From Acidobacteriota bacterium (GTDB taxonomy: Bacteria > Acidobacteriota > UBA6911 > RPQK01 > JAJDTT01), in contig OZ242374.1 in assembly GCA_965209055.1 (NCBI GenBank), positions 5,120,001-5,184,000 of the forward strand: a stretch of DNA of 64,000 nucleotides, written 5' to 3'. Under the pieces are notes generated by a model, which had not been told where the DNA came from, did no database searches, and was given only the letters and a program-made list of their open reading frames with translations. The position numbers were made by a program, and so were the translations under genes. Positions 4,391 to 49,193 of the stretch are shown here, one piece after another; position 1 is the stretch's first letter, and every line of letters starts with the position of its first letter.

Positions 4391-5733
4391 GCGAACCCGC
4401 CGGGGCCAATCAGAGAGGCTACTGGGGCTCCGGGCTCGGTTTCGTCCTGGCTGTGGTCGGTTCAGCCATCGGGCTCGGCAATATCTGGCGGTTCCCCACC
4501 GAGGCGGGACAGAGCGGAGGGGGCGCCTTCGTTCTGGTCTACGTGATCGCTACTTTTATGATCGGGGTCCCGGTCATGCTGGCCGAGTTGGCCGTGGGCC
4601 GGAGAACCCAGCGAAATCCGGTCGGAGCCTACCGGAGCCTGGCTCCCGGAAGCGGCTGGGGACTGGCCGGAGGGTTCGCCGTCTTCACCGGCTTGATCAT
4701 CCTGAGCTACTACAGCGTGGTCGCCGGCTGGACACTCAAATACACCTGGATCGCATTCAGCGGCTCCCTGCACGGCGCCACTCCGGAGGCCATCAGCGCG
4801 ACTTTCAACAATTTCATCCAGGATCCGGTACCGGTGCTCGGCTGCCACCTTCTCTTCATGCTCATCACCATCCGGATTGTCATGAGGGGCATACGGCATG
4901 GGATCGAACGAGCCGCCAAGATCCTCATGCCCGTGCTGTTCGTGCTTCTGATTCTGCTGGTGGTCCGTTCATTGACCCTTCCGGGAGCCGCCGAAGGCCT
5001 CCGCTTCTACCTCAAGCCCGACTTCGGAATGCTGGATGTCAAGGTGATCCTGAAAGCCGTGAGTCATGCCTTCTTCTCGCTGAGCCTGGGAATGGGCGCC
5101 ATCATCACTTTTGGAAGCTACCTGTCGCCCAAGCAGAATTTGGTGTCCAGCGCCGTATGGGTGAGCTGCGCCGACTTCCTGATCGCATTCCTGGCCGGCC
5201 TGGCCATATTCCCGGCGATCTTTTCGGTTCCGGGCCTGGAACCCGACGCCGGGCCGGGGCTGATCTTCGTGGTTCTCCCCAACATCTTCAATGCCATCCC
5301 CCTGGGACACCTCTTCGGAGCGGCTTTTTTCATCCTGCTGGCCATAGCGGCGCTGACTTCCGCCATCTCCATGTTGGAGGTGGTCGTCTCCTTCACCATC
5401 GACGAGTTGGGATGGGACCGCCGCCGATCGGCCATCGGAGTCGGCAGCGTGATCTTCCTCCTGGGAATCCCCAGTGCGTTGGGCAACGGCGCCGTTCCGC
5501 TGTTTTCCGGAACCCTCGATTTCGTGAACGAATATTTTGGCGGGATGGGATTGGTCTTGGGTGCTCTGCTGGTAAGCCTCTTCGTGGGCTGGAAGTGGGG
5601 TATCGGCAACGCCGTCGCGGAGTTGGAGCGGGGCCGCGGCACTTTCCGCTTGGGAAAGGTCTGGGGGTTCCTGATCCGGTTCGTCTGCCCGCTGGCCATC
5701 CTCACGATCCTCTTTCAGCTCCTCAGGGGATGA
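4387..5733 (+). CDS. Sodium-dependent transporter, NSS/SNF family
   Basis: [27 protein letters not shown]; ATGA overlap with the accC stop. Confidence 0.92.
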
Positions 5734-5739
5734 GGCGCC

Positions 5740-6384
5740 ATGCCCAAGTCCCTGCCCGGCCCCCTCTATCCCATCACTCACTGCCCCAACCCGCAGGGCT
5801 GGGATCACGTGGCCTTCTCCGACTGCCTGATCCGTTGCGGGATCCGGTTTTTCCAGGTCCGGGACAAGACGCTTCCGGACGGCCATCTCTACCGGCAGCT
5901 CCTGAAGATCCGTTTACTGTGCCGGGAGGCGGGAGCCTGTTTCGTGGTCAATGACCGGGTGGACATGGCTCTGGCGGCCGAGGCCGATGGCGTCCATCTG
6001 GGCCAGGACGACCTTCCGGCGGCGGCCGCCCGGCGACTCCTGGGAGAGGGAGCGGTCATCGGACTTTCCACCCACAATTGGGACCAGTTCAGAAGGGGAC
6101 TGGAGGAGCCGGTGGACTACCTCGCGGTGGGCCCCGTTTTCCCCACCCATACCAAGGAGGATGCGGCTCCTGTCCTGGGCCTGGAGCTGCTCCGAAGGGC
6201 CTCCCGCAGCACCGATCTCCCCTTGGTCGCCATTGGCGGAATCTCGGTGGAGAAGGCCCCCGGCGCGTGGCAGTCCGGGGCCCGTTCGGTGGCGGTGATC
6301 TCCGACGTCGCCGGTGCCGAGAGTCCGGAGCGCCGGATTCGAGCCTACCTGGAACGGTCACGGGTACGGGTCGGGGCGACATGA
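5740..6384 (+). CDS. thiE: Thiamine-phosphate synthase
   Basis: QVRDK, VNDRVD, GVHLGQDD, GPVFPTHTK, VAIGGI. Confidence 0.93.
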   Translation: MPKSLPGPLYPITHCPNPQGWDHVAFSDCLIRCGIRFFQVRDKTLPDGHLYRQLLKIRLLCREAGACFVVNDRVDMALAAEADGVHLGQDDLPAAAARRLLGEGAVIGLSTHNWDQFRRGLEEPVDYLAVGPVFPTHTKEDAAPVLGLELLRRASRSTDLPLVAIGGISVEKAPGAWQSGARSVAVISDVAGAESPERRIRAYLERSRVRVGAT

Positions 6385-6977
6385 ATCTCCTGCTGTTCGA
6401 GTCTCGGCGAGGCCATGCACTGCCCGTGCTGGAACCCCTTCCGAAGGAGGCGTATCGCCAGCGGCGGAAGGAGACGACGCGGTGGTCTCGGCTGCAGGGC
6501 CGGGTCCGTTCCACGTATCGCCGATTGGAAGAGCGTTTCGATTACGACGAGAGGCTCTGCTCGGCGCTTCACCACGTTCCCGAACTGACGGTGCGCCACT
6601 CCAGCCGCCTGGGCGGAGAGGCCGCGCGAAACCTGCTGCATCGCTTTTTCAAGCGGCAGCGCCTGAAGCATTCCGCGTGGCTCAAGGTGGATCTGGTCCT
6701 CGCCGGACTGGGCAGCGTCCTCACCCCCATTCCGGGACCCAACGTCTTTTTCTTCTATCCGGCCATCCGGGCATTCGGCCACTATACGGCGCTCCGGGGA
6801 GTGCGGGATCCAGCCAGGCTGGATCGGTCGTCATTTGTGTCCGAGCCCCTGATCGACCAGGTTCAGGCGAACATGGATCGAATCGAAGACATCCGTCCGT
6901 TACTGGTCCAACTGGAGCGGCGTTACAACCTGACAGAATTGGAACGGCGCCTTTTTTCCGGGGGGACCCGGCGCTGA
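6381..6977 (+). CDS. Conserved hypothetical protein resembling the Mit_KHE1 (mitochondrial K+/H+ exchange-related) family
   Basis: ATG 6381 overlaps the thiE stop; LTPIPGPNVFFFYPAIRAFGHYTALRG segment. Confidence 0.6.
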   Translation: MNLLLFESRRGHALPVLEPLPKEAYRQRRKETTRWSRLQGRVRSTYRRLEERFDYDERLCSALHHVPELTVRHSSRLGGEAARNLLHRFFKRQRLKHSAWLKVDLVLAGLGSVLTPIPGPNVFFFYPAIRAFGHYTALRGVRDPARLDRSSFVSEPLIDQVQANMDRIEDIRPLLVQLERRYNLTELERRLFSGGTRR

Positions 6978-30413: not shown

Positions 30414-32201
30414 TCATCGAGGAATGACGGGAAGCACCAAGGCCGACGGGTACCGGGCGTCATGGTGGATGGCCTGCTTCGCGATCTTCGTTTCGGCGCT
30501 GGTTCCCAGGCGGTTGCCGGTATTCAGATTTCTCGCATAGCGGGGAAAATTGCTGCTGGAGACTTCGAGCCGGAATCGGTGGCCCGCCTTGAAGACGGTG
30601 CTGGTCTCCCAGAGGCTGATTCGGTACTCATAGATCTTGCCCGGTTCGATCAGGCTTGGATTCTCCAGAGACTCCCGGAACGAAGCCCGCATGATGCCTT
30701 CGCAGATGTGGATCGCGCGCCCGTCCGGATAGACTTCGGTGAGGGTCGCCGCGAAATCGGTGTCCTTGGCGGTCGAGGCTGCGTACAGCCTCAACTCGAC
30801 CGGCCCGGTGACTTCCATGTCCCGCTCCAGGGGCTGGCTCGTATACACGAGCACGTCGTCCCTTCGCTGCACCGGACGCCGGTCTCTCGGACCCTTCAGA
30901 TCGCCGTGGGTCGAGATCTGCCCTCCCAGCGTCGGCACCGGATCGTGGGGATTGTAGTGATAGGAATCCTTGGGGGCGGACGAGTTGTCCGGTTGTAGAG
31001 AAAGCCGGCCGTTCCCGTGAAGAGAGTTGGCGTTCCCGCTGCTGGAAAGGAAATAATTGGCCCACTTGGTCCGGGCCAGGGGCCACTCCGTCTCGTCTCT
31101 CCACCGGTCGTCTCCCATCACGAAGATGCGGATCGGCGCTTCCTGGTCAATTCCGTTTTCGATCCCCTTCAGCCAATAGTCGTACCATCGCAGGTGGACG
31201 GACTTCAGATCGGCGCCGTCGCCGAAGGTGACGGTCTTTCCGTCCGCCATGCGATAGCCACCGTGAGCCCAGGGACCCACCAGGATCTTGGTTCCCTTCC
31301 TCGCGGTTTCCGATCCGCCTTCCTCGCGCATGCCCTTGAAATTGCGAAACGCTTCGTGCACCAGGTTGTCGTACGAGCCAGTCATCAAGTAGGCGGGAAC
31401 CGTGATCTGGCCATATTTTTCCTTGACCCCATAGGCCTTCCAGTACGAGTCATACTTCCAGTGGCTCAGCCAATCCTTGTAGTAGGAACCTTACTGCAAG
31501 TCGTCCAAGGCCGTCATCAGGGGGAGCCTGCGAAAGACCTCCTCGTAATTCACCGTCACTTCTCCATGGGCGAAACGGGAGATGTTCGGCTGCAAGGTAT
31601 GGCCCGCGAGAAAGACTCCAGCCATGAATATGACGCCCAACTGGGGGACGCCGTCGTTGTAAAGATGGCCGAAGTTGGTCTGCTGGTTGGACGCCGGAAC
31701 CATGCATTTCAGGTAGGGGCTGCCCAGGGGAGCCGACATCAGGGCCGTGAAGCCGTCATAGGAGCGGCCGAACGTCCCCACCGAACCGTTGCACCAATCC
31801 TGCTGTCCCAGCCACTGCTGGGTGTCGTAACCGTCTTGCGGTTCATCGACGTAAGGTTCCCAGACCCCCTCGGCGTCGTAGCGCCCGCGCACATCCACCA
31901 GGGCGACTCCGTAGCCGCGGCGGGCAAAGTAGAGCCCCCAGGACACCTTCAGCGGACCGATGTTGTTCCCCCAGTAGGTCCGAAGCAGGAGACAGGGGAA
32001 CTTCCCGGGCGCGTCGGGACGGTAGATGTCGGCGGAGAGATTGATCCCGTCCCTCATGGGAACCTTCACGTTGATTTTGACTCTGACCTCGAACTGTGCG
32101 GGGCCGGGTTCCCAATCTGGCTGGGCCATGGCTGCGAACACGGATAGGAACAGGGTCAAAGCCGGAACGATCAGAATTCGCGTGGTCACGCTTCGAAACA
32201 T
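30414..32201 (-). pseudogene. CocE/NonD family hydrolase with an in-frame TAA at 31491-31493
   Basis: ORFs 31491..32255 and 30414..31388 share one frame; ALDDLQ*GSYYKDWLSH aligns without gaps to ALDDIADLPWFRTWIKH of the intact paralog; VPMRDG, GRSYDG, GPWAH. Confidence 0.85.
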
Positions 32202-32356
32202 GATCTCTCCAGAAACTGAAGGAGCGGTCTGGCGAATGAGGGCAGGATAGCCCATGTGATCACCGGGAGGCGAATCGGGAACAAGACGAACGTTCTTGTC
32301 CCGCAGTCTTCTCCCCCGCTGTTTTCGGCTCTCCCGGCAAACCGCGAAAAAGAAGA

Positions 32357-32458
32357 GGGGGACACAGAGACTGTCCCGTGTATCCCCTGTATCCAGACTG
32401 TCCCCTGTTCACGGCCGGACTGTTCGCCTGTATCCAGACTGTCCCCTGTATCCGTCCC
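32357..32458 (+). repeat. Stuttered array of an AGACTGTCCCCTGTATCC motif
   Basis: AGACTGTCCC at 32368, 32395 and 32436, a degenerate copy at about 32417, repeated CTGTATCC; begins with the GGGACA-cagagac-TGTCCC hairpin. Confidence 0.85.
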
Positions 32459-33592
32459 GGTTCCAGGGATCTGAATCAGGGGAGGTCCCAGGAGGCGATC
32501 AAGCAGTTCAAGACGGCGATCACCCTCGATCCCCGGTCAGCCGGCGCCCACCTGATGCTCGGTTACGCTTACCGTCTCCTGGGGTCCTACCGCATGATCG
32601 GCGAAGCCAAGGGCGAGTTCAGGCAGGCACTTTCCCTCGATCCCGGGAATACCAGCGCGCGGTTCCACCTGGCCCGCGTCTATCTCGATCTGCGTACGGG
32701 GACACAGAGACTGTCCCCTGTATCCTGTGTATCCGTCCCCTGTATCCTGTTCCGTCTCCTGGGGTCCTACCGCATGATCGGCGAAGCGAAGGGCGAGTTC
32801 AGGCAGGCACTTTCCCTCGATCCTGGGAATACCAGCGCGCGGTTCCACCTGGCCCGCGTCTATCTCGATCTGGGCCGGATCCGCAAGGCCCGGGAAACGC
32901 TGGAGGAGCGCCTCGAGATCACTGAGAAGACGCCGGAACTGCTCTCTCTCCTGGGCGAGGTGAATCGCCAGTCGGGCGATCCCCGGCTTTCGATCCGGCA
33001 GAACGAGTCGGCCGCTATTCTGGACCCGGACTTGGCTCAAGCCCACTACTACCTGGGCCTGGCGCACCTGGATAAGGGAGACACGGAAGAGGCGCTCAGC
33101 CGGCTGGAACGCGCCATCGCAGCGAAGGGGGCCACCTCCGACATGGTCCGCAAGGCCGGTTCCGTCTACCTGCAGGAGGGCGCGCTGCAGAAGGCGGTCG
33201 ATCTGCTCCGGAAGGCCGTGGAAATCAGTCCGGCGGTGCCGGAAGGCCGTTTGGAATTGGCACGCGCTCTTCGCGTTACGGGTCAACCCGACTCGGCCCT
33301 CGCGGAATTGGATGCGGCCCTCTCCCACGCCGGCGGATTCTCGGCTTCCGGCAAGTACTTGGGGTTCGAGTTGGACGTCTACCTGGAACAGGGCCGGGCG
33401 TTTGACGCCAAGAGCTCACCGGAGGAGGCGATCCGTTCCTATCTGCGAGTCGTGGAACTCGACCCCGGACATGGAGAGGCTCACCACCGGCTGGCCCGGT
33501 TGTTCGCTTTGACCGGTGATCCGGCCAAGTCGCGGAAACATGCCTCCCGAGCCGGCAAGGCAGGGTACTCGGAGCCGGCCGTCGGGCGTTGA
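32378..33592 (+). pseudogene. TPR-repeat protein with its 5' end replaced by the repeat array and an internal in-frame duplication (possibly still expressed)
   Basis: TPR motifs (AHLMLGYAY, ARFHLARVY, AHYYLGLAH); ORF start lies inside the repeat array; 40-aa block duplicated. Confidence 0.7.
32572..32872 (+). repeat. 121-bp direct duplication (32572-32692 / 32752-32872) flanking a 59-bp AGACTGTCCC-motif insert
   Basis: Copies match except at 32608/32788 and 32644/32824; insert 32693-32751 reads cgtacGGGGACACAGAGACTGTCCCCtgtatcctgtgtatccgtcccctgtatcctgtt. Confidence 0.92.
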
Positions 33593-35451: not shown

Positions 35452-37260
35452 TTACCGGGGAATCACCGGCAGAATCACATGCGAGGGATACATCTCGTTG
35501 TGATAGATCGTCTGCGTGGCGACCTTCATCTCCGAGGTCATGCCGAACTCGGCTCCGGTGTTCAGATTGCGGGCCCAGCGGGGGAAATTGCTGCTGCTGA
35601 TTTCCAGCCGAATCTTGCTCCCCGGCTGGAACTCCCAGCTCGTCTCCCAGATATGGATCGTGTACTCGTAGATCTTGCCCGGCTCGATATGGGTTGGATT
35701 CTCCAGAGAGTCGCGGAAGCTGGCTCGAACGATCCCTTCGCTGATATGGACGGACCGGCCGTCGGGCAGGACCTCGGTCAGAACCGCCGTGAAATCGGTG
35801 TCGACGGCGCTCGACGCGGCATGCAGCTTGACCTCGACGGGCCCGGTGACCTCCAGCGGTTCGGACAGCTCGTCGGAGGTATAGATCAGGACGTCCTGCC
35901 GCCTCTGGACCACCAGCCGGTTCTGCGGGCCTCTCTGGTTGGCCGGAAACTCGGTCTGCCCGCCAACGGTCTCCACCGGATTGGCGGGATCGTAATCGAA
36001 TGTATCCTGAGGGGAATCCGCCGCAGGCTCGGACGTGCCCAGCGTCCCGTCGCCGTAGAGTGAATTGGCCGATCCGCCGCTGCCCAGGTAGTACTTGGTC
36101 CACTGGGTGCGGGCCAGCGGCCATTCCCACTCGTCCCGCCACTTGTTGGCGCGCATCACGAAAATCCGGAGCGGCGCTTCGGTGTCCACACCGGTGTTCA
36201 TTCCCTTGAGCCAGTGGTCGTACCACCGGACGTGTTCATCCAGAATGTCGACGTAGATGTCGGGACCGAAGTCCAGGATCGACGTCTCCATCCGCCTGTT
36301 GACGCCGTGATCCCAGGGCCCCACCAGGAGCTTGGTCCCCTCCCGGGCCGCCTTGGAACCGCCCTCCTTCCGGAACCCGTTGAAGTTGCGGAAGTTCTCG
36401 CGCACCAGGTTGTCGTACCAACCGGTGATGAAATAGGCGGGCGCCTTGATCTGCCCGTATTTCTCTTTGACCCCGTAGCTCTTCCAATAGTCGTCGTAGG
36501 TGGGATGCTTGATCCAGGTCCTGAACCAGGGCAGATCCGCGATGTCGTCCAAGGCGGTGATCAGGGGAAGACGCCAGAAGAACTTGTTCCAGTCGAGAAT
36601 GGGATTCTCGGTGATTCCGGGGCCGTGCAGAAACTGCATGGTGTGGCCCGCCCAGAAGAAACCGGCCACGAAGGTGACGTTGAGTTGCATGACGCCGTCG
36701 TTGTAGAGGTGGCCGAAGTTGGACTGCTGGCAAACCGACGGGACCATGCACTTGAGGTATTTGCTGCCGTAGACCGACGGCATGACCTGGGTGAACCCCG
36801 GATAGGAATACCCGAAGGTCCCCAGATTACCGTCGCACCATTCCTGCTGGCCGATCCACTCGTGGGTATCGAACCCGTCCTTGGGATCGTTCACGTAAGG
36901 ATCCCATTCCCCTCCGGAATCGTGACGGCCCCTCAGATCCACCAGCACGACCGCATATCCGCGCTTGGCGAAGTAGAGGGCGTGCTCCATGTCGTTGCCG
37001 CCTCTCATGTTGTTGTACGGCGTCATCAGGAGCACGGCGGGAAACTTGCCCGGAGCGTCGGGACGGTAGACGTCCGCCGAGAGATGGACGCCGTCCCGCA
37101 TGGGAACCGGATTGTGAATCTTGAACTTCACCTGGTACTGAGGTTTCGACCGCTCGTTTTGACCCACTGCGAGCACCATGGTTGCGCCCAGAAGAATGGG
37201 CAGGACCAACAGGACCGGCCGAAAGCTCCCGGAAAGCATATTTTCAACTTCAGAAAGCAT
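35452..37260 (-). CDS. CocE/NonD family serine hydrolase, secreted
   Basis: Signal peptide, VPMRDGVHLSADVYRP, GYSYPG, GWYD, GPWDH, SSSNFPR. Confidence 0.92.
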   Translation of the reverse strand: MLSEVENMLSGSFRPVLLVLPILLGATMVLAVGQNERSKPQYQVKFKIHNPVPMRDGVHLSADVYRPDAPGKFPAVLLMTPYNNMRGGNDMEHALYFAKRGYAVVLVDLRGRHDSGGEWDPYVNDPKDGFDTHEWIGQQEWCDGNLGTFGYSYPGFTQVMPSVYGSKYLKCMVPSVCQQSNFGHLYNDGVMQLNVTFVAGFFWAGHTMQFLHGPGITENPILDWNKFFWRLPLITALDDIADLPWFRTWIKHPTYDDYWKSYGVKEKYGQIKAPAYFITGWYDNLVRENFRNFNGFRKEGGSKAAREGTKLLVGPWDHGVNRRMETSILDFGPDIYVDILDEHVRWYDHWLKGMNTGVDTEAPLRIFVMRANKWRDEWEWPLARTQWTKYYLGSGGSANSLYGDGTLGTSEPAADSPQDTFDYDPANPVETVGGQTEFPANQRGPQNRLVVQRRQDVLIYTSDELSEPLEVTGPVEVKLHAASSAVDTDFTAVLTEVLPDGRSVHISEGIVRASFRDSLENPTHIEPGKIYEYTIHIWETSWEFQPGSKIRLEISSSNFPRWARNLNTGAEFGMTSEMKVATQTIYHNEMYPSHVILPVIPR

Positions 37261-42645: not shown

Positions 42646-44367
42646 ATGGCGACGGGAACCGATCTGGAAACAATCCTCAGACGGATCGACGGCCGCGGCT
42701 ACAAGGCTTACCGGGCCATCCGGGGAACCTACGATCTGGACGGGTTCCGGCTCTCGGTGGACCATGTTCAAGGGGACCCGTTTGCCGCGCCCTCCCGGAT
42801 GAGCGTGCGCGTGGAGTCAGGCCGAGCCGGCTTTCCCGATTTCCTGAGCGCCGGCCGGATTCGGCGCATCGCCTGGGCCGACTTCCTGACTCGTGCCTTT
42901 CATCGAGCCATCCGCGTCACCGCCGTCGGACGCCGGGGCACCGGACGCAGTGGCCTCTTCGAGATCGACCGCGGGCACCAGGAGGTCCTGGAAGCCAACA
43001 GTGTCGTCATCCACCGCGGATTCCTGGAGGCGCGTTTCACCACCGGCCTTCCCGCCGCCGGGCGGTCGATCCGTGGCCGCCAAGCGGCTGAGATGCTGCT
43101 TTCGGAACTCCCCCGGATCGTTCGCCGGTCCCTCTTCTACGCCCGGCTTCCCCGGGAGGAGCTCCGGCGGCAGGTCCAGGTCGTGGAAGATCAGGACGCG
43201 CTCCGCAACCAGCTCGAGGAGCGGGGACTCGTGGCCTTCGTGGCCAACGGGTCCTCCCTGCCCCGGCGAAGCGGCGTGGACGATCGCCCTCTCGTTCCCA
43301 CTCCCGCGCAACCGGTGATCGATTTCCGGTCTCCCTCGAGCCTGGAAGTCGAACTCGATAGGCCAAACGGAGGACCGGTCCGGGGAATGGGCCTGAGACC
43401 GGGCGTTACCCTTATCGTAGGAGGGGGCTTCCACGGCAAGACCACCCTGCTGAACGCGCTGGAGCGGGGGGTCTACAACCAGATTCACGGCGACGGCCGA
43501 GAGGGTGTGGTCACCATCGAGTCCGCCCTCAAGATACGGGCAGAAGATGGACGCTACGTGGAGAGGGTCGACCTGTCTCCCTTCATTCGAAATCTTCCGC
43601 TGGGCCGGGAAACGGTCAACTTCTCCACAGACAATGCGTCCGGGTCAACGTCCCAGGCGGCCGGCATCGTGGAGGCCCTGGAGATGGGTTCCCGGCTCCT
43701 GCTCATGGACGAGGACACCTCGGCCACCAACTTCATCATCCGGGATGCCCGGATGCAGGCGTTGGTGGCCAAGCCCAAAGAGCCCATCACCCCCTTCATC
43801 GACAAGGTCCGGCAAATGTACCGGGACTATGGCGTCTCGACGATACTGGTCATGGGCGGGTCCGGAGACTATTTCGACGTGGCCGACTCGGTGGTGATGA
43901 TGGACGAGTACCGTCCCCGGGATGTCGGCGGCCAGGCCCGATCCATCGTCGCGGCACAGCCCAGCCGGCGCTTGCGCGAGGGAGGCGACCGCTTCGGGCG
44001 GGTGCTCCAACGCCGTCCCCGGGCCCGCAGCTTCGACGCCAGGCGGGGAAGGCGAGCTGTCAAGATCGATGCCAGGGGATTGCGAAAACTCCACTACGGC
44101 CGCACCGACGTCGATCTGTCCGCCTTGGAGCAACTGGTGGACTCCTCGCAGACCCGGACCATCGGACTCGCCATCCACCATATGGCGACTCGCTGCTTCA
44201 CGGACGACCTGACCCTGGAGCAGGCTCTCGCCCGGCTCGTCAAAGATCTGGATGCCGGGGGTTTGGACATCCTGTCTCCGTTCAAGGTGGGCAACCTGGC
44301 CCGTCCCCGGCACTACGAGGTCGCCATGGCCCTTAACCGGATGCGGACCCTCTCGGTCCGGGCCTGA
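42646..44367 (+). CDS. Uncharacterised ABC-class ATPase (ABC_ATPase / MRB1590-like family)
   Basis: DHVQGDPFAAPS, GGGFHGKTT Walker A, ASGSTSQAA, LMDEDTSATNF, NRMR C-terminus. Confidence 0.88.
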   Translation: MATGTDLETILRRIDGRGYKAYRAIRGTYDLDGFRLSVDHVQGDPFAAPSRMSVRVESGRAGFPDFLSAGRIRRIAWADFLTRAFHRAIRVTAVGRRGTGRSGLFEIDRGHQEVLEANSVVIHRGFLEARFTTGLPAAGRSIRGRQAAEMLLSELPRIVRRSLFYARLPREELRRQVQVVEDQDALRNQLEERGLVAFVANGSSLPRRSGVDDRPLVPTPAQPVIDFRSPSSLEVELDRPNGGPVRGMGLRPGVTLIVGGGFHGKTTLLNALERGVYNQIHGDGREGVVTIESALKIRAEDGRYVERVDLSPFIRNLPLGRETVNFSTDNASGSTSQAAGIVEALEMGSRLLLMDEDTSATNFIIRDARMQALVAKPKEPITPFIDKVRQMYRDYGVSTILVMGGSGDYFDVADSVVMMDEYRPRDVGGQARSIVAAQPSRRLREGGDRFGRVLQRRPRARSFDARRGRRAVKIDARGLRKLHYGRTDVDLSALEQLVDSSQTRTIGLAIHHMATRCFTDDLTLEQALARLVKDLDAGGLDILSPFKVGNLARPRHYEVAMALNRMRTLSVRA

Positions 44368-44439
44368 TCAGAAACAGCTTGAGGCCCAATTGGATGTGCC
44401 GCGGTTCACCCGCAGAAAGGATCCGGCCGAAGGTGGGCG
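44313..44439 (+). repeat. Left copy of a ~128-bp imperfect direct repeat (partner 45944-46072)
   Basis: CTACGAGGTCGCCATGGCCCTTAACCGG...GATCCGGCCGAAGGTGGGCG; 10 substitutions and a 2-nt indel relative to the right copy. Confidence 0.92.
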
Positions 44440-44443
44440 CAGC

Positions 44444-44524
44444 GGAAATAATGGCAAGTGAAATAATGGGGACAGTCTGTTTTTCCTCAAGAAGGGGACA
44501 GTCTGCTTTTTCCTGCTTTTTCCC
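44444..44524 (-). repeat. Left-end motif array
   Basis: GAAATAATGG twice, GGGGACAGTCTG at 44468 and 44494, (C/T)TTTTCC runs three times. Confidence 0.85.
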
Positions 44525-44623
44525 AATTTCCTTCGCCGTTTCCAGTTCTGAGTCGTTGTTTTCATCAGGGACGTGAACCGACGCCCCATCGTGCCCGAGT
44601 CGGTTGAACCGAGTATCGTAGCC

Positions 44624-45559
44624 ATGGCCCGAACCGCACGACACAAAAGCCCGGACGCCGCCTTCTACCACATCACCAATCGTGTCACCGGCTCGCCCGA
44701 TTGGTTCCCCTTCGAAGACCCGCAAGCCCGTCAGAAACTCCTGGACATGATTTTGTTCTACGTCAACGCCTACCGGTGCCGTCTGGCCGCATTCCAGATC
44801 ATGGGCAACCATTACCACTTCATCGTCCATTTTGAAAAACCCCGCCCCTTGTCCCGACAGGAGTTGAAGGAGAGCGCCCACAAGCTTTATGGACGAAAGA
44901 CCGAGAAAAATACCGCCGATTGGACCGACGCCGATTGGAAGACGTTCAATGAGCGTCTCTTTGACGTGTCCAAACTGATGGCGAACGTGGGCGGGTTCTA
45001 TGCCCGGTGGTACAACCGCACGTTTCGACGGCGGGGCCACTTGTGGGGTGACCGGTTCAAGAACCCGGAGCTAATGGGACTTGAAGCCGTGCAGGACGCC
45101 GTCCTTTACGTGGAACTCAATGCCGTCCGGGCCGGAATGGTCAACCGGCCCGAGCAGTGGAAGTGGGGCTCGGCCCGCTGGAGAGTCACCGGCCAGGATC
45201 AGGACCTGATTCCCCTGGAGGAACTGTTCCCGCCGGCTCCGGGAACCGATGTCTACGGCAGTTACCGGGCTCGCTTGTACTATCGAGGCGCCGTCCCCAC
45301 CCGGGACAACCAGGCGGCGATCCCCGGGTGGATTGTCCTTCAGGAGCAGCGCCGTGGCTTTACCCGCGCCGGGGCTTTTCGCCGGCGTTTGCGATTCCTG
45401 ACGGACGGAATAGCCGTCGGGCCGGCGGAGAAGGTGGCGCAGCTGCTGGAGGCCTATCGGCAGCAAGGTCGATATCGACGTCGCCGACACCCCATTCCCC
45501 AACTGGACGGAGTGCTGTATTCCCTGCGAGAGCAACGCTCAAACGCGTTTGTCACGTAG
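44624..45559 (+). CDS. REP-associated tyrosine transposase-like HUH endonuclease (Y1_Tnp) with C-terminal extension
   Basis: MARTAR..FYHITNR, MGNHYHF (HUH), YNRTFRRRGHLWGDRF, YVELNAVRAGMVNRPEQWKWGS. Confidence 0.9.
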   Translation: MARTARHKSPDAAFYHITNRVTGSPDWFPFEDPQARQKLLDMILFYVNAYRCRLAAFQIMGNHYHFIVHFEKPRPLSRQELKESAHKLYGRKTEKNTADWTDADWKTFNERLFDVSKLMANVGGFYARWYNRTFRRRGHLWGDRFKNPELMGLEAVQDAVLYVELNAVRAGMVNRPEQWKWGSARWRVTGQDQDLIPLEELFPPAPGTDVYGSYRARLYYRGAVPTRDNQAAIPGWIVLQEQRRGFTRAGAFRRRLRFLTDGIAVGPAEKVAQLLEAYRQQGRYRRRRHPIPQLDGVLYSLREQRSNAFVT

Positions 45560-45784
45560 ACTCGCCCGATCGCCGATCCTTCCACCGGAGCACCGAACGC
45601 CTCAAATCATGAAACTACTCAATACCCGTGGGCTCTTCCCAAATTTCTGACGGTTCAGGAGAACAGGGAAGCAGAGTTCAATAAGGATCGCGAAAAGGCG
45701 GCCCGTTCCCGATGGCACCATCAATCAAGAGCTCCGCGATCCCATCCGTAATCGCGTAGAAACGAATCTCGCGAATGCCTTTGC

Positions 45785-45943
45785 GGGAATCGAGACGACT
45801 GCAACAATCGGGACTGTCCCTTTGTTCCGGGGAATAGAAACTGTCCCTTTATGTTGGGAAATCGAGACCGCTCGGAAATCGAGACTGTCCCTTTAATACG
45901 CTCGGAAATCGTACGCGGAAATCGAGACTGTCCCTTTACTACG
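45785..45943 (+). repeat. Right-end motif array, consensus GGAAATCGAGACTGTCCCTTT
   Basis: ACTGTCCCTTT at 45813, 45840, 45884 and 45927; truncated GGAA(A)TCG(AGAC) copies at about 45786, 45857 and 45904. Confidence 0.88.
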
Positions 45944-46072
45944 CTACGAGGTCGCCATGGCCCTTAACCGGATGCGGAACCTCTCGGTCCAGTCCTGATC
46001 AGAACAACAGCTTGAGGCCCAACTGGATGTGGCGGGGCTCTCCCGCCGAGAGGATCCGGCCGAAGGTGGGCG
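45944..46072 (+). repeat. Right copy of the ~128-bp direct repeat
   Basis: Matches 44313-44439 and contains the real 3' end of the TonB receptor gene. Confidence 0.92.
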
Positions 46073-49000
46073 AGCCCAGAAAGAGATCCGGGAGGTGCAG
46101 ATTGGGCCGGTTGAAGAGGTTGAAGAACTCGGCCCGGAACTGGACCGTGGCCTCCTCGGAAATCTTCGTATCCCGCACCAACGAAAGGTCCACCGTTGCG
46201 TATCCCGGTCCTTCGAGAATGTTCCTTCCCGAGTTGCCGAAACTGCCATAGCTGGGAAAAACGAAGGCCCGGGTGTCGAACCACCGATCCGGACCGGGAT
46301 TGGAGATGGTCCCGGTGGCCGTGCGATGAGGCCGGTCGTTGGCGCCGAAGCCCAGAATCGACCGTCCGGTGTTGCTGTTGTCGATCTCCGGAAGCAGGGC
46401 CACGGTGAACGGATGACCCGTCTGGAAGGTCAGGATCCCGAAGCTCTGCCAGTTGGAGAGGAGACTGGAGAGAATTCCCAGATCCCCCAGGAACGACCGG
46501 CCCCGGCCCACCGGAATCTCCCAGGAATAGCTCACCGAGAGCCGATGGGTCAGGTCGAAGTTGGACCGCGCCCGCTCCGTCCCGACGTTCGAGCTGTCCT
46601 GGGGAAAGTTGGGATCACCGGTGCTGGAAAAGAAGCTGGACGAGTCATCGATGGACTTGGCCCAACTGTAGGAGGCCAGCAGCGAAAACCCGGAACTCAA
46701 CCGGCGGTTGAACCGCGCCTGGAGCGAGTGATAGCTGGAGTTCCCGCGCGACTCCAGCATGTTGATGTCATCGAACTGCGGGATCGGCCGGCGATAGCGC
46801 CCCACGGGACTGGGATTCGGCTGGTTGAAGTCGCGCGCCGTCAGGAGCTTGGCCCCCTTGGACCCCACGTAGCCCACCTCGATCATCTGCCGGGTTCCCA
46901 GCTCCCGCTGCAGATTCAGGTTCCAGTGCTGGCTGTAGGCCTGGGCCAGGTCCCGCTGGTAAAAGAGGACCGACGGGGGGATTCGATAAGGGTAGTTTTG
47001 AGGAAAGGGATCATACAGCGTCAACAGCCGTTCGGGCAGCGGGAAGTAGAGGCGGAAATCGAAATACGGCGGATTGAAGTAAAGGCCTTCGCCAGGCGCC
47101 AGGGGCGATTGGTCGTAGAAAACCCCGTACCCCGTCCGGAGCACCAGGCGTCCGCCCCGGTCCAGTCCCCAGGCCAGTCCGATCCGGGGAGCCCAGTTGT
47201 TCCGGTCGGGCAGATACCCGCCCCGGGGCACGCCGCCGCTTCCGACGCCGACCAGCGTTCCGCTCTCCGGATCGTAGACGTTGGCCCGATCGTCCTTGTC
47301 GACGGGCGGTGAGTTGTACTCATAGCGCACGCCCAGAGCCAGCGTCAGGTTGGGCCTCAACTTGAAATGGTCCTGAATGAAGAAGCTGTAGCTTCGGTTG
47401 CGAAGGTGCTGGGGATTGTCGAGCCGCGCCACGCCCGTCAGCGAGGGCAGTCCCAGGAGCAGATCGGCCAAGCCGTTTTCCGTGATTCCGGTCTGGCCCA
47501 CGAAGTTGAGAAAGCCGCGGGACTGGACGTCCCGGTAGGCGTCCTGCCGGACGATCCGGACATCCCCGCCCACTTGCCAGAGATGTTTGCCGCTGGCGTA
47601 GGTGGAATGGTTCAGAATCTGAAAGGTGTCCGACGCGCTGTGCTGAGGGTTGTTGTATTCGTCCCCCAAAGACGAAAACCCGGAGACGGTGATGAGACTC
47701 ATCCCCAGATCGCGGGGACGGTCGGAGAGATCGGGCAAACCCAATTCGGAGTTGATGCTCCGGCCCATGTTCTCGTGGAAAGCGCCGGCTGCAACCCGGT
47801 TGAAGGCGAAACGCACCTGATTCAGGAAGCGGGAGGTGAAGGCATGCGATTCGCTGACGACCAGATTCTGGGCGCGCCTGGGGACGTTGGTTCCGTATCC
47901 GGGCACGGCTGAGAAGAGGGGCCCGGAAAAGGGATCGAAGAGGTCCCGGTCGCCGAAACTGTAGCGAATTGCCAGGTTCGAGGACGAACTCGCGGCGTGA
48001 TCGATCCTCACGTCGAAATGGTCGTCCCGATCCTCCAGGGTGGGCGAAGAGACGAAGTTGGGACCCTCCCCCGAGCGGTTGGGGTCGGGATAGAGCTGAG
48101 CGATGGCGCGGCCCGTGGGATGCATCCAGAAGGTGGGGATCGCGTTTCCGGGAAACGGCTGGCGGGTCAACGGATTCACGGGCAACGGACCTGAGGAGCC
48201 GGAAAAATCGCCCGAACGCTCGGCGAGAGTGGGGACCGTGGTGCCCCGGGTGACTCCCTGCCGAACCCGCCGTCCTTCGTAGTCGGCAAAGAAGAACGTC
48301 CGGTTCCGGACCACGGGCCCTCCCAGCGAGAACCCGAACTGGCTTCTCCGATACTCCGGGTCCGGCCCCTGAGGCAATGAGAAGTAGTTCCGGGCATCCA
48401 GAGCCGCGTTCCGGAAGAAACCGTAGACGGTTCCATGGAACCGGTTGCCGCCCGACTTGGTCACGACATTGATCTGACTGCCCACGTTTCGTCCGAACGA
48501 GGCGTCGTAGGTGCCCATGAGCACTTCGAACTCCCGGATAGCGTCGACGGGAGGGTTGACGCCGACCCCGTTGAGCTTGGGGTCTCCGTTGTAGACGCCG
48601 TCCAACAGAAAACTGTTGGACGCCTCGCGCTGCCCGTTGATGTTCAACGCGAAGTCGCCGCGGACCGAACCGGCCGATCCGGGCGCGGCGGGTGCGCTCC
48701 CCGGGAGCAGCAGGCTCAACTCGAAGAAGTTCCTCCCATCCAGTGGGAGGCCCGCGACCTGTGAGTTCTCGATGACGCTTCCCAACGCCAATGAGTCCCG
48801 CTTGAGCCACCCGCGGCTCTCCACGACCAATACCTCCTCGGTCAGTTCGCCCGGCTGCAGCGTTACTCGAAGCTCCAACCGCTCGTTGACCCGCAGGGAG
48901 AACTTCTCCACATGCTTCCGGTAGCCGGCGTGGGCGATCTCCAGACGGTAGGTTCCGGACGTAAGAAGCGGGATCAGCAGGTGGCCGTCCCGGTCGGCGA

Positions 49001-49193
49001 CTCCGGTTCGCCGGCGGTTTGTTTCCTCTTGGACCACCTCGGCAGCGGCTCCCTCCACAGGACCGGTTCCGTCCCCGATCAGCAGCCTCAGCGAGCCTTC
49101 AACGGTCTGGCCGTGAAGCGTACCCCCGGCGCAGAGCAGGAGAATCAGGATCAACTCGGTTCGATGTTTCAGTCCCAATGGCATGGATTCCAT
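45999..49193 (-). CDS. Oar-like TonB-dependent receptor with carboxypeptidase-regulatory-like N-terminal domain
   Basis: Signal peptide, LPLDGRNFFEL, VTKSGGNRFHG, FIQDHFKLRPNLTLALGVRYEY, FRAEFFNLFN, terminal Phe. Confidence 0.92.
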   Translation of the reverse strand: MESMPLGLKHRTELILILLLCAGGTLHGQTVEGSLRLLIGDGTGPVEGAAAEVVQEETNRRRTGVADRDGHLLIPLLTSGTYRLEIAHAGYRKHVEKFSLRVNERLELRVTLQPGELTEEVLVVESRGWLKRDSLALGSVIENSQVAGLPLDGRNFFELSLLLPGSAPAAPGSAGSVRGDFALNINGQREASNSFLLDGVYNGDPKLNGVGVNPPVDAIREFEVLMGTYDASFGRNVGSQINVVTKSGGNRFHGTVYGFFRNAALDARNYFSLPQGPDPEYRRSQFGFSLGGPVVRNRTFFFADYEGRRVRQGVTRGTTVPTLAERSGDFSGSSGPLPVNPLTRQPFPGNAIPTFWMHPTGRAIAQLYPDPNRSGEGPNFVSSPTLEDRDDHFDVRIDHAASSSSNLAIRYSFGDRDLFDPFSGPLFSAVPGYGTNVPRRAQNLVVSESHAFTSRFLNQVRFAFNRVAAGAFHENMGRSINSELGLPDLSDRPRDLGMSLITVSGFSSLGDEYNNPQHSASDTFQILNHSTYASGKHLWQVGGDVRIVRQDAYRDVQSRGFLNFVGQTGITENGLADLLLGLPSLTGVARLDNPQHLRNRSYSFFIQDHFKLRPNLTLALGVRYEYNSPPVDKDDRANVYDPESGTLVGVGSGGVPRGGYLPDRNNWAPRIGLAWGLDRGGRLVLRTGYGVFYDQSPLAPGEGLYFNPPYFDFRLYFPLPERLLTLYDPFPQNYPYRIPPSVLFYQRDLAQAYSQHWNLNLQRELGTRQMIEVGYVGSKGAKLLTARDFNQPNPSPVGRYRRPIPQFDDINMLESRGNSSYHSLQARFNRRLSSGFSLLASYSWAKSIDDSSSFFSSTGDPNFPQDSSNVGTERARSNFDLTHRLSVSYSWEIPVGRGRSFLGDLGILSSLLSNWQSFGILTFQTGHPFTVALLPEIDNSNTGRSILGFGANDRPHRTATGTISNPGPDRWFDTRAFVFPSYGSFGNSGRNILEGPGYATVDLSLVRDTKISEEATVQFRAEFFNLFNRPNLHLPDLFLGSPTFGRILSAGEPRHIQLGLKLLF

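Follow-up and report, generated by a model that had tools for sequence, protein, structure and literature searches.

Homology-facilitated illegitimate recombination and Campbell-type integration by a single crossover leave an insert between direct repeats, chimeric for donor and recipient alleles. Long direct repeats are also made by the insertion sequences (IS) IS1634 and IS1549, for which lengths of 8-514 bp are reported (PMC2266710). The Y1 transposases of the RAYT family, which belong to loci with REP repeats, are described as vertically inherited in two preprints (bioRxiv 10.1101/119735; 10.1101/2021.07.10.451892). In this work, we analyzed a locus that recalls each of these situations: a RAYT-like gene, framed by short repeats, that lies between convergent genes for an ABC-class ATPase and a TonB-dependent receptor in a 64,000-nt stretch of Acidobacteriota DNA (hereafter the window, G000:C1:5120001-5184000; the genome, G000, is one 6.08-Mb contig of 62.8% G+C). 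The junction of the two gene ends is present on both sides of the RAYT-like gene. A first-pass annotation of the window had proposed that the second copy came from a functional allele of another strain, and that the repeat motifs at this and a second site mark the ends of incoming DNA tracts. Comparison with related genomes leads us, tentatively, to favor a different history, in which the orphan receptor end beside the ATPase gene is the fossil of a TonB allele that once worked, homologous recombination having since exchanged the living gene.

The two junction copies form a direct repeat (90.7% identity over 129 aligned columns) that brackets 1504 nt (44440-45943), and in each copy the 3'-terminal 55 nt of the ATPase gene adjoin the 3'-terminal 72-74 nt of the receptor gene. 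On the left, it is the ATPase part that belongs to the living gene and the receptor part that is an orphan; in the right copy the reverse holds. Codon alignment of the orphan TonB tail (44368-44439) with the living tail (45999-46072) gave exactly the differences that the first-pass annotation had listed: all seven substitutions are silent third-position changes, the living codons CTC, TCG, GGA, GAG, CCC, CGC and CAG reading CTT, TCT, GGT, GAA, CCG, CGG and CAA in the orphan, which in addition has lost 2 nt directly ahead of the stop. The orphan ATPase tail (45944-45998) likewise carries the three replacements reported for it and no other difference (RNLSVQS-stop, against RTLSVRA-stop in the living gene). 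A search of the G000 genome for the receptor tail (E <= 0.001) returned the two junction copies and nothing else, which rules out conversion from a paralogous receptor tail.

The annotation had argued that a dead copy decaying neutrally should not differ from its parent in this way. Among the 189 possible single changes in the 21 tail codons, 52 are silent (0.275), and the probability of seven silent changes out of seven is 1.2e-4 if every change fell on the dead copy. On the assumption that the living gene, which is under constraint, took half of the changes (mixed null), it rises to 0.043. Seven comparisons of orphan and living sequence, at this locus and in relatives, could be pooled, with silent and replacement changes numbering 7 and 0 in the G000 receptor tail, 0 and 3 in the G000 ATPase tail, 7 and 2 in G005, 7 and 10 in G006, 3 and 0 in a G007 fragment, 0 and 1 in G004, and 2 and 2 at another RAYT copy of G000 (copy E). 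The pooled silent share, 26/44, about equals the 0.64 predicted by the mixed null. The silent-only pattern is thus real, and on its own only moderately beyond chance. Ordinary divergence after an old duplication or a last conversion, with the changes split between living and dead copy and the seven silent ones a lucky draw singled out by the annotation, is a serious rival, even though we consider it rather less than probable. Besides these figures, it accords with the absence of silent changes from the three in the ATPase half and with the G006 orphan, which is plainly decayed and has indels in addition to its ten replacements and seven silent changes.

What speaks against this lucky draw is the lineage on which the changes fall. 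When seven living alleles were compared by parsimony, six of the seven differences proved unique to the orphan lineage, and all six are silent; only CGC/CGG is derived on the living side, CGC being common to G000, G001 and G004. Six silent-only changes on a dead copy have a probability of about 4e-4, which suggests that they arose while the sequence was part of a working gene; even with mutation targeted to G/C (22 of 47 G/C sites), the probability of hitting third positions only is about 0.02. To this extent the orphan looks like the copy of an allele that once worked, and not like one decayed at random. The sister species G008 (its record bears the label Candidatus Aminicenantes) carries an orphan with CTT, GGT, GAA and CCG as in G000, and with TCC where G000 has TCT. 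The four shared states occur in none of the seven living alleles, CCG being found elsewhere only in a duplicate fragment of G007. As they are common to both orphans, these silent variants are older than the split of G000 and G008. The changes that followed the split, the 2-nt deletion and CAG>CAA in G000 and CAG>CGG (Q>R) in G008, look neutral when read from the alignment; they include a frame-breaking deletion and a replacement, unlike the earlier silent-only phase, and this again speaks against ordinary divergence throughout.

We compared G000 with eight other genomes of the genus (G001-G008). Orthologues of the ATPase gene are present in 8/8 of them, at 87-95% DNA identity. A RAYT orthologue follows the ATPase gene in all seven with long enough contigs (G001-G007), and the receptor gene comes next, within the stretch compared, in six of those seven loci; the G008 contig ends inside the left repeat array and was not counted. 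The RAYT tree agrees with those of the ATPase and the right flank; for G006 and G007, identity is 98% in the RAYT gene and 95.5% in the ATPase gene, with a right-flank third-position divergence of 0.032. Since it is syntenic in 7/7 genomes and its tree follows the flanks, the RAYT block appears to be an old, vertically inherited resident and not incoming DNA. An empty ATPase-TonB site was found in none of the genus relatives; outside the genus, at four loci of a sister genus and another one, the neighbours of the ATPase gene differ, and there is neither a RAYT gene nor such a receptor within 6 kb in 4/4 of them.

Remnants of the junction are present in several of these species. Orphan receptor tails lie between the ATPase gene and the left repeats in G000 (72 nt), G008 (~55), G004 (~45) and G001 (~17), and on the other side the right repeats are separated from the receptor gene by orphan ATPase tails in G005 (232 nt), G006 (~105), G004 (~57), G000 (55) and G001 (~20). 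The boundary CTACGA is common to the orphans of G000 and G004, and a CTTG>CTCG change to those of G001 and G004. The occurrence of orphans in several species and their common boundary indicate that the duplication is older than these species and was trimmed from the repeat-proximal side. The orphan tail has also been considered as the C-terminus of a small translated product under protein-level selection. The G008 orphan retains the ending KLLF-stop, and the G000 tail is in frame inside a 235-codon antisense open reading frame (ORF) at 44333-45040. Against these two observations, the deletion in G000 removes the last residues and the stop, the G008 orphan has suffered Q>R, orphan lengths vary as listed above, a repeat array lies upstream and antisense ORFs are no rarity in DNA of 63% G+C, so that selection of this kind seems to us very improbable.

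Although the duplication predates the lineages, genome-specific variants are found in both copies. The orphan ATPase tail of G000 differs from its own living tail at 3/55 positions and from those of other genomes at 5-10; the corresponding figures are 0/56 and 2-9 for G004, and 9/232 and 15-33 for G005. The orphan of G006 stands at an equal distance from every living allele (13-23 of 112). A G000-specific GGTCGCC...CCCTTAAC is present in both G000 copies and not in the living tail of G008, and the G004-specific GAAGTGG and GCGGTGGGGACC are present in both G004 copies. This sharing shows occasional gene conversion between junction copies within genomes, and conversion explains the identical parts of the two copies.

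Two further observations were made on the gene ends of relatives. The living ATPase gene of G005 (L014, G005:C1:798500-807000, 1872-1960) contains a 90-nt patch with nine genus-unique states, seven of them silent; it lies between stretches identical to the orphan of the same genome, which keeps the genus-common states, and looks like a short tract that may have been imported. It offers a parallel to the history that we favor for the receptor end of G000. In G007 (L018, G007:C2:404000-414500, oriented 4396-6737) ~1.17 kb are duplicated in tandem, among them the final ~820 nt of the receptor gene. The copies differ at three sites, all silent, and one of these changes (CCC>CCG) coincides in site and state with that seen in the G000 and G008 orphans. 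With only three differences, the 820-nt fragment is a recent tandem duplicate, and its origin as an imported allele was ruled out.

In contrast to its neighbours, the receptor gene has a discordant ancestry. Between G000 and G008, third-position divergence is 0.089 in the ATPase gene and 0.064 in the right flank, and 0.156 in the 5' half of the TonB gene, the 3' half not being assembled in G008. For G000 and G001 the order is reversed, with 0.223 (ATPase) and 0.147 (right flank) against 0.112 in the TonB 3' half and 0.087 in its last 450 nt. G006 and G007 diverge by 0.095 in the ATPase gene and by 0.158 and 0.162 in the 5' and 3' halves of the TonB gene, whereas G006 and G003 diverge by 0.19-0.27 in both flanks and by only 0.08-0.12 in TonB. 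Within columns 2100-2300 of the receptor alignment, G000 is 96-98% identical to G001 and 83-88% to G008; a hypervariable receptor patch is common to G000 and G001 only. The TonB tree accordingly conflicts with those of the ATPase, the RAYT gene and the right flank, both for G006/G007/G003 and for G000/G008/G001 (loci L013-L018 and L020). Because TonB divergences are discordant and affinities switch patchwise along the gene, the receptor gene appears to have been exchanged repeatedly between species, and the RAYT gene and both flanks not. The annotation had expected a switch of ancestry at the motif. The discordance was found in the TonB gene itself, while RAYT, ATPase and right flank agree with one another (for G008 this comparison lacks the TonB 3' half).

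The stop codons of the two genes are separated by a zero-nt spacer in the right copy of G000 and otherwise only in its left copy and in the G008 orphan, and in the right copy this spacer and the G000-type ATPase-tail variants continue up to the receptor stop. From ~30 nt inward, the living tail of G000 is G001/G004-like, with two differences from G001 in 142 nt. The change of type at that point puts a crossover in the outermost 3' part of the receptor gene, at a distance of 55 nt from the motif. Which of the two copies is the newcomer is something we infer: it is more likely that the living TonB end arrived later and that the orphan is the old resident, the opposite of the direction first assumed. 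In the history that we favor, the RAYT-like gene and its GACTGTCCC repeats would be a long-standing resident between the convergent ATPase and receptor genes, and an old duplication of the junction of the two gene ends would have left remnants on both sides of the RAYT block. These remnants would have been trimmed to species-specific lengths and at times made alike again by conversion with the ends of the living genes. For the orphan TonB tail, the last copying from a working gene would precede the divergence of G000 and G008; the tail would keep the silent codons of that allele and would have taken few neutral hits since. Meanwhile, the living TonB gene would have been swapped between species by ordinary homologous recombination, such that its 3' part in G000 is now of the G001/G004 type. 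Two functional alleles of different ancestry would meet at the locus, hence the silent differences.

Several facts weigh against this history. Only the 5' half of the living TonB gene is assembled in G008, and the orphan codons have never been seen in a gene of the G000/G008 lineage itself. The orphans share five unique third-position changes in 21 codons, where 1.6-2.3 are expected for the G000/G008 stem from flank divergence. Four of these five run towards A/T, whereas 22 of 24 third positions are G/C in the living alleles of the genus; by composition this looks more like relaxed mutation than like living alleles, and it fits ordinary divergence. Of the two flanks, the right one as a whole stands nearer to G001/G004, and the TonB 3' divergence is only ~1.3- to 2-fold below that of the flanks. 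A strain whose intact TonB gene carries the orphan codons, which the annotation had suggested looking for, was not found: a scan of a species-genome collection for the codon combination gave only a contig of a sister-species metagenome-assembled genome with the same orphan and a chance hit in Roseburia, and a metagenome scan for a conserved 23-mer of the tail gave one unrelated chance hit and no further alleles. Finally, this history does not itself account for the duplication of the junction.

The excess of shared silent states, absent from the seven living alleles, can also be taken as a sign that foreign DNA brought the orphan halves as functional alleles of a donor, either on a tract joined illegitimately at the motif and through homology at its other end, or on a circle, made up of the RAYT block and a junction copy, that was integrated by a single crossover. 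Direct repeats around an insert are the expected product of single-crossover integration, CTACG is common to the end of the right-array unit and to the ATPase sequence at the junction, and RAYT copy E also has, on its left, a 37-nt orphan of the 3' end of its right neighbour. However, the phylogeny of the RAYT block is not that of foreign DNA, the orphan is older than the G000/G008 split, both G000 copies bear G000-specific ATPase-tail variants, none of six strain ATPase proteins ends in RNLSVQS, the scans yielded no donor allele, the discordant segment is the TonB gene and not one bounded by motifs, and the most recent RAYT copies (B and C) have no flanking duplicates. We therefore regard a foreign origin of the orphan halves as unlikely. 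The original idea of the annotation is partly supported, in that two diverged functional alleles would meet at this locus and that the orphan seems to go back to an allele that was once functional, at a place of discordant ancestry; a recent import is at odds with its age, and the motif as a tract end was dropped.

A variant of integration is kept open because of the orphan at copy E. The RAYT block together with one junction copy might pop out by recombination between the junctions and re-enter related genomes through a single homologous crossover. While we hold this to be improbable, it would amount to a homology-addressed spread or refreshment of a 'domesticated' transposase locus between species, the silent-only orphan being a chimeric footprint of donor and recipient and the orphan at copy E a second footprint of pop-out and re-entry. 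At copy E itself (G000:C1:4989370-4989409, 4991104-4991143), the orphan comes from the 3' end of the right-hand convergent gene (a 671-codon ORF) and sits left of the left repeat array; its four differences are two silent changes and two replacements.

We further considered whether RAYT or repeat insertion generates long target duplications, and ruled it out as a general process. Flanking direct repeats were found at 0/24 motif clusters (2/72 in controls) and at 5/242 single motifs (2/242 in controls), so that flanking duplicates are no general property of the motif. They were also searched for at RAYT copies B, C, D and F, and none was found. Target-site duplication implies a duplicate at each new insertion and an empty site in relatives, and neither was observed for the ATPase-TonB locus; at the second, TPR site the empty site does exist in G008, but the insert is a copy of local sequence.

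An assembly artefact would be another explanation: two co-assembled strains, a possibility that the annotation had itself named, stitched at a common 35-mer. The short-read contigs end at this identical stretch of 35 nt and by themselves do not allow the copies to be phased, and the contamination estimate of the genome is 7.4%. For the same reason, it is uninformative that no contig from public runs joins both copies while skipping the block. On the other hand, G000 is one contig, contigs from another study (X1) hold all four junction sequences with 0-1 differences and a variation of one repeat unit, the G008 contig links the ATPase gene, the orphan and the left repeats, the layout is shared by the single-contig genomes G004, G001 and G005, and 6/6 strain ATPases end in RTLSVRA, RTLSVRS or RTLAVRT and never in RNLSVQS. 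An artefact of this sort is hardly credible. The runs that hold the sequence are sponge and coral-reef metagenomes.

These results suggest that a dead fragment beside a resident RAYT-like locus can serve as a dated fossil of an earlier allele, and that such fragments may show directly which allele replaced which, and when. In this genus, an uncultured lineage associated with sponges and corals, the living receptor gene would have been swapped between species while its neighbours descended vertically. They also call for caution: where a pseudogene fragment differs from its parent by silent changes alone, a recent foreign import need not be the cause. The features of the window on which the analysis rests are collected in Table 1.

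Table 1. Coordinates, within the window, of the features at the ATPase-TonB locus and at the second duplicated site
Feature	Position	Strand	Basis or remarks
ABC-class ATPase gene, 573 aa, living, ends RTLSVRA-stop	42646..44367	+	Pfam ABC_ATPase 1e-121, ABC_N, MRB1590_C
Left junction copy: living ATPase tail, then orphan TonB tail	44313..44439		Direct repeat with 45944-46072
Orphan 3' end of TonB-dependent receptor gene, 21 matching codons	44368..44439	-	Alignment to living tail
Left repeat array, two GGGGACAGTCTG units at 44468-44479 and 44494-44505	44440..44572
RAYT-like Y1 (HUH) transposase ORF, 328 aa, conserved ATG at 44624	44573..45559	+	Profile matches
Non-coding stretch downstream of RAYT gene	45560..45800		Kept at the locus in G004, G005 and G006
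Right repeat array, GACTGTCCC at 45812, 45883 and 45926, inverted relative to left array	45801..45943
Right junction copy: orphan ATPase tail 45944-45998 (RNLSVQS-stop), then living TonB tail	45944..46072
Living TonB-dependent receptor gene, 1064 aa, mosaic between species	45999..49193	-	Pfam OMP_b-brl_4 1.6e-240
121-nt duplicate 32572-32692 / 32752-32872 around 59-nt repeat-bearing insert 32693-32751	32572..32872	+	Within TPR ORF 32378-33592

The RAYT ORF passes the cut-off of Pfam Y1_Tnp (27.9 bits, cut-off 23) and misses that of NCBIfam REP_Tyr_transpos (46.9 bits, cut-off 80; E 2.5e-12, profile positions 6-145 of 146), and the motifs GNHYHFIVH (HYH), YVELNAVRAGMV and LYVELNAVRAGMV can be read in its protein; a PDB sequence search with this protein gave nothing. 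G000 holds six RAYT genes. Copies B and C are 98% identical to the copy described here (A), three of the six being 97-98% identical to one another, and D, E and F are 76-83% identical to it. The gene at this locus has orthologues across the genus, and yet occurs in several copies in G000. Copy A has two GGGACAGTC repeats to its left and, inverted to these, three GACTGTCCC repeats to its right, and its units GGGGACAGTCTG (left) and GAGACTGTCCCTTTA (right) are inverted to each other. Minus-strand units on the left and plus-strand units on the right are also found at copies C and D, and minus-strand units to the left of E. The number of units in the left array varies, the X1 contigs skipping 36 nt (44476 to 44513) and G008 having one unit.

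The arrays beside copy A fold no better than shuffled sequences (z 0.68 on the left and 0.39 on the right), and the repeat 9-mer occurs 186 times in the genome against ~75 expected (~2.5-fold); the repeats at this locus are not the palindromic, genome-wide abundant sequences of REP loci. As the arrays lack better-than-shuffle folding, we call the gene RAYT-like and do not take it for a proven REP/RAYT pair. The stretch downstream of the gene (45560-45800) had no match in Rfam and is not conserved at copies B and C; it may be a small gene or a regulatory RNA. In G001 (L016, G001:C1:1650500-1661000) the RAYT gene is inverted relative to the ATPase gene, the left array consists of five GGGGACAGTCT units, and ~2.4 kb of other DNA lie between the RAYT gene and the receptor gene.

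The second site raised by the annotation is a TPR gene of the window. Its duplicate has two differences, gcc/gcg and ccc/cct, and in the frame of the ORF both are silent, as claimed. The ORF reads through both copies, and the 180-nt addition keeps the reading frame; as both copies are translated, two silent differences say little. The duplicate is specific to G000, G008 having one copy and no insert (an empty site), and relative to G008 there is one change in each copy. The 59-nt insert matches only the local repeat cluster at 32358-32394, 340 nt upstream, and folds better than shuffles (z -2.15), unlike the arrays beside RAYT copy A. We found no evidence for imported tracts at this site, and the duplicate is a local rearrangement beside the repeat cluster.

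Two observations were made in the surroundings of this gene. In G000 (window 32256-32460) it lacks ~400 nt of 5' coding sequence present in G008 (L036, G008:C563, 400-780), which may be a PpiC/SurA-type rotamase segment, and the GACTGTCCC repeat cluster abuts the truncated gene. In addition, direct repeats at 30418-32096 and 35456-37140 of the window, with a spacing of ~5044 nt and 68-75% identity (families D1-D3, D6 and D12), are probably tandem paralogous genes.

Unusually long target duplications do occur in G000. A 1905-nt IS1634-family element, with a 562-aa DDE transposase (NF033559, 335.9 bits, cut-off 100) and ends CCTGACTTCGAC, is present in three 100%-identical copies, all of them outside the window (G000:C1:1179803-1181921 (L025), 3009595-3011756 and 5284576-5286774), each between perfect, locus-specific direct repeats of 107, 129 and 147 nt. 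The duplicates described here as scars of this element were ruled out, there being no CCTGACTTCGAC ends or DDE gene in 44440-45943 or 32693-32751. An IS4-family element with a 391-aa DDE transposase (G000:C1:3902295-3904105, L031) lies between 129-nt direct repeats with three mismatches and has a GACTGTCC motif near its right end.

Set beside these described systems, the locus resembles each in part. With the IS1634 family it shares the length of the duplicates, 121 and 127 nt here against 107, 129 and 147 nt at the elements in G000, whereas the duplicates here enclose neither IS ends nor a DDE gene, have diverged and are common to several species. It differs from Campbell-type or illegitimate integration in that phylogeny does not mark the RAYT block between the repeats as foreign and that the structure is older than the speciation. 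As in RAYT/REP loci, there is a Y1 HUH protein with the HYH and Y...N.VRAG motifs, short inverted flanking repeats and a position that appears to be vertically kept across the genus; it departs from them in a 328-aa protein well below the NCBIfam cut-off, six copies in the genome, arrays that are not hairpin-rich, a motif only ~2.5-fold over expectation, and orphan gene ends flanking the block. Concerted evolution of nearby direct repeats through gene conversion, a pseudogene fragment serving as 'fossil' allele, would equally give genome-specific variants in both copies and identical stretches beside diverged patches, although here the repeats are ~130 nt long and straddle two convergent gene ends, each copy being half living and half dead. 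In inter-species receptor exchange, too, a TonB tree conflicts with flanks and RAYT and affinity changes patchwise; what sets this case apart is that no donor was identified and that no more than ~30 nt separate the left crossover from the stop, next to which is the orphan ATPase tail. The component processes, i.e. gene conversion, receptor exchange and RAYT loci, are all known, and the locus is a neat example of them rather than a new type of system.

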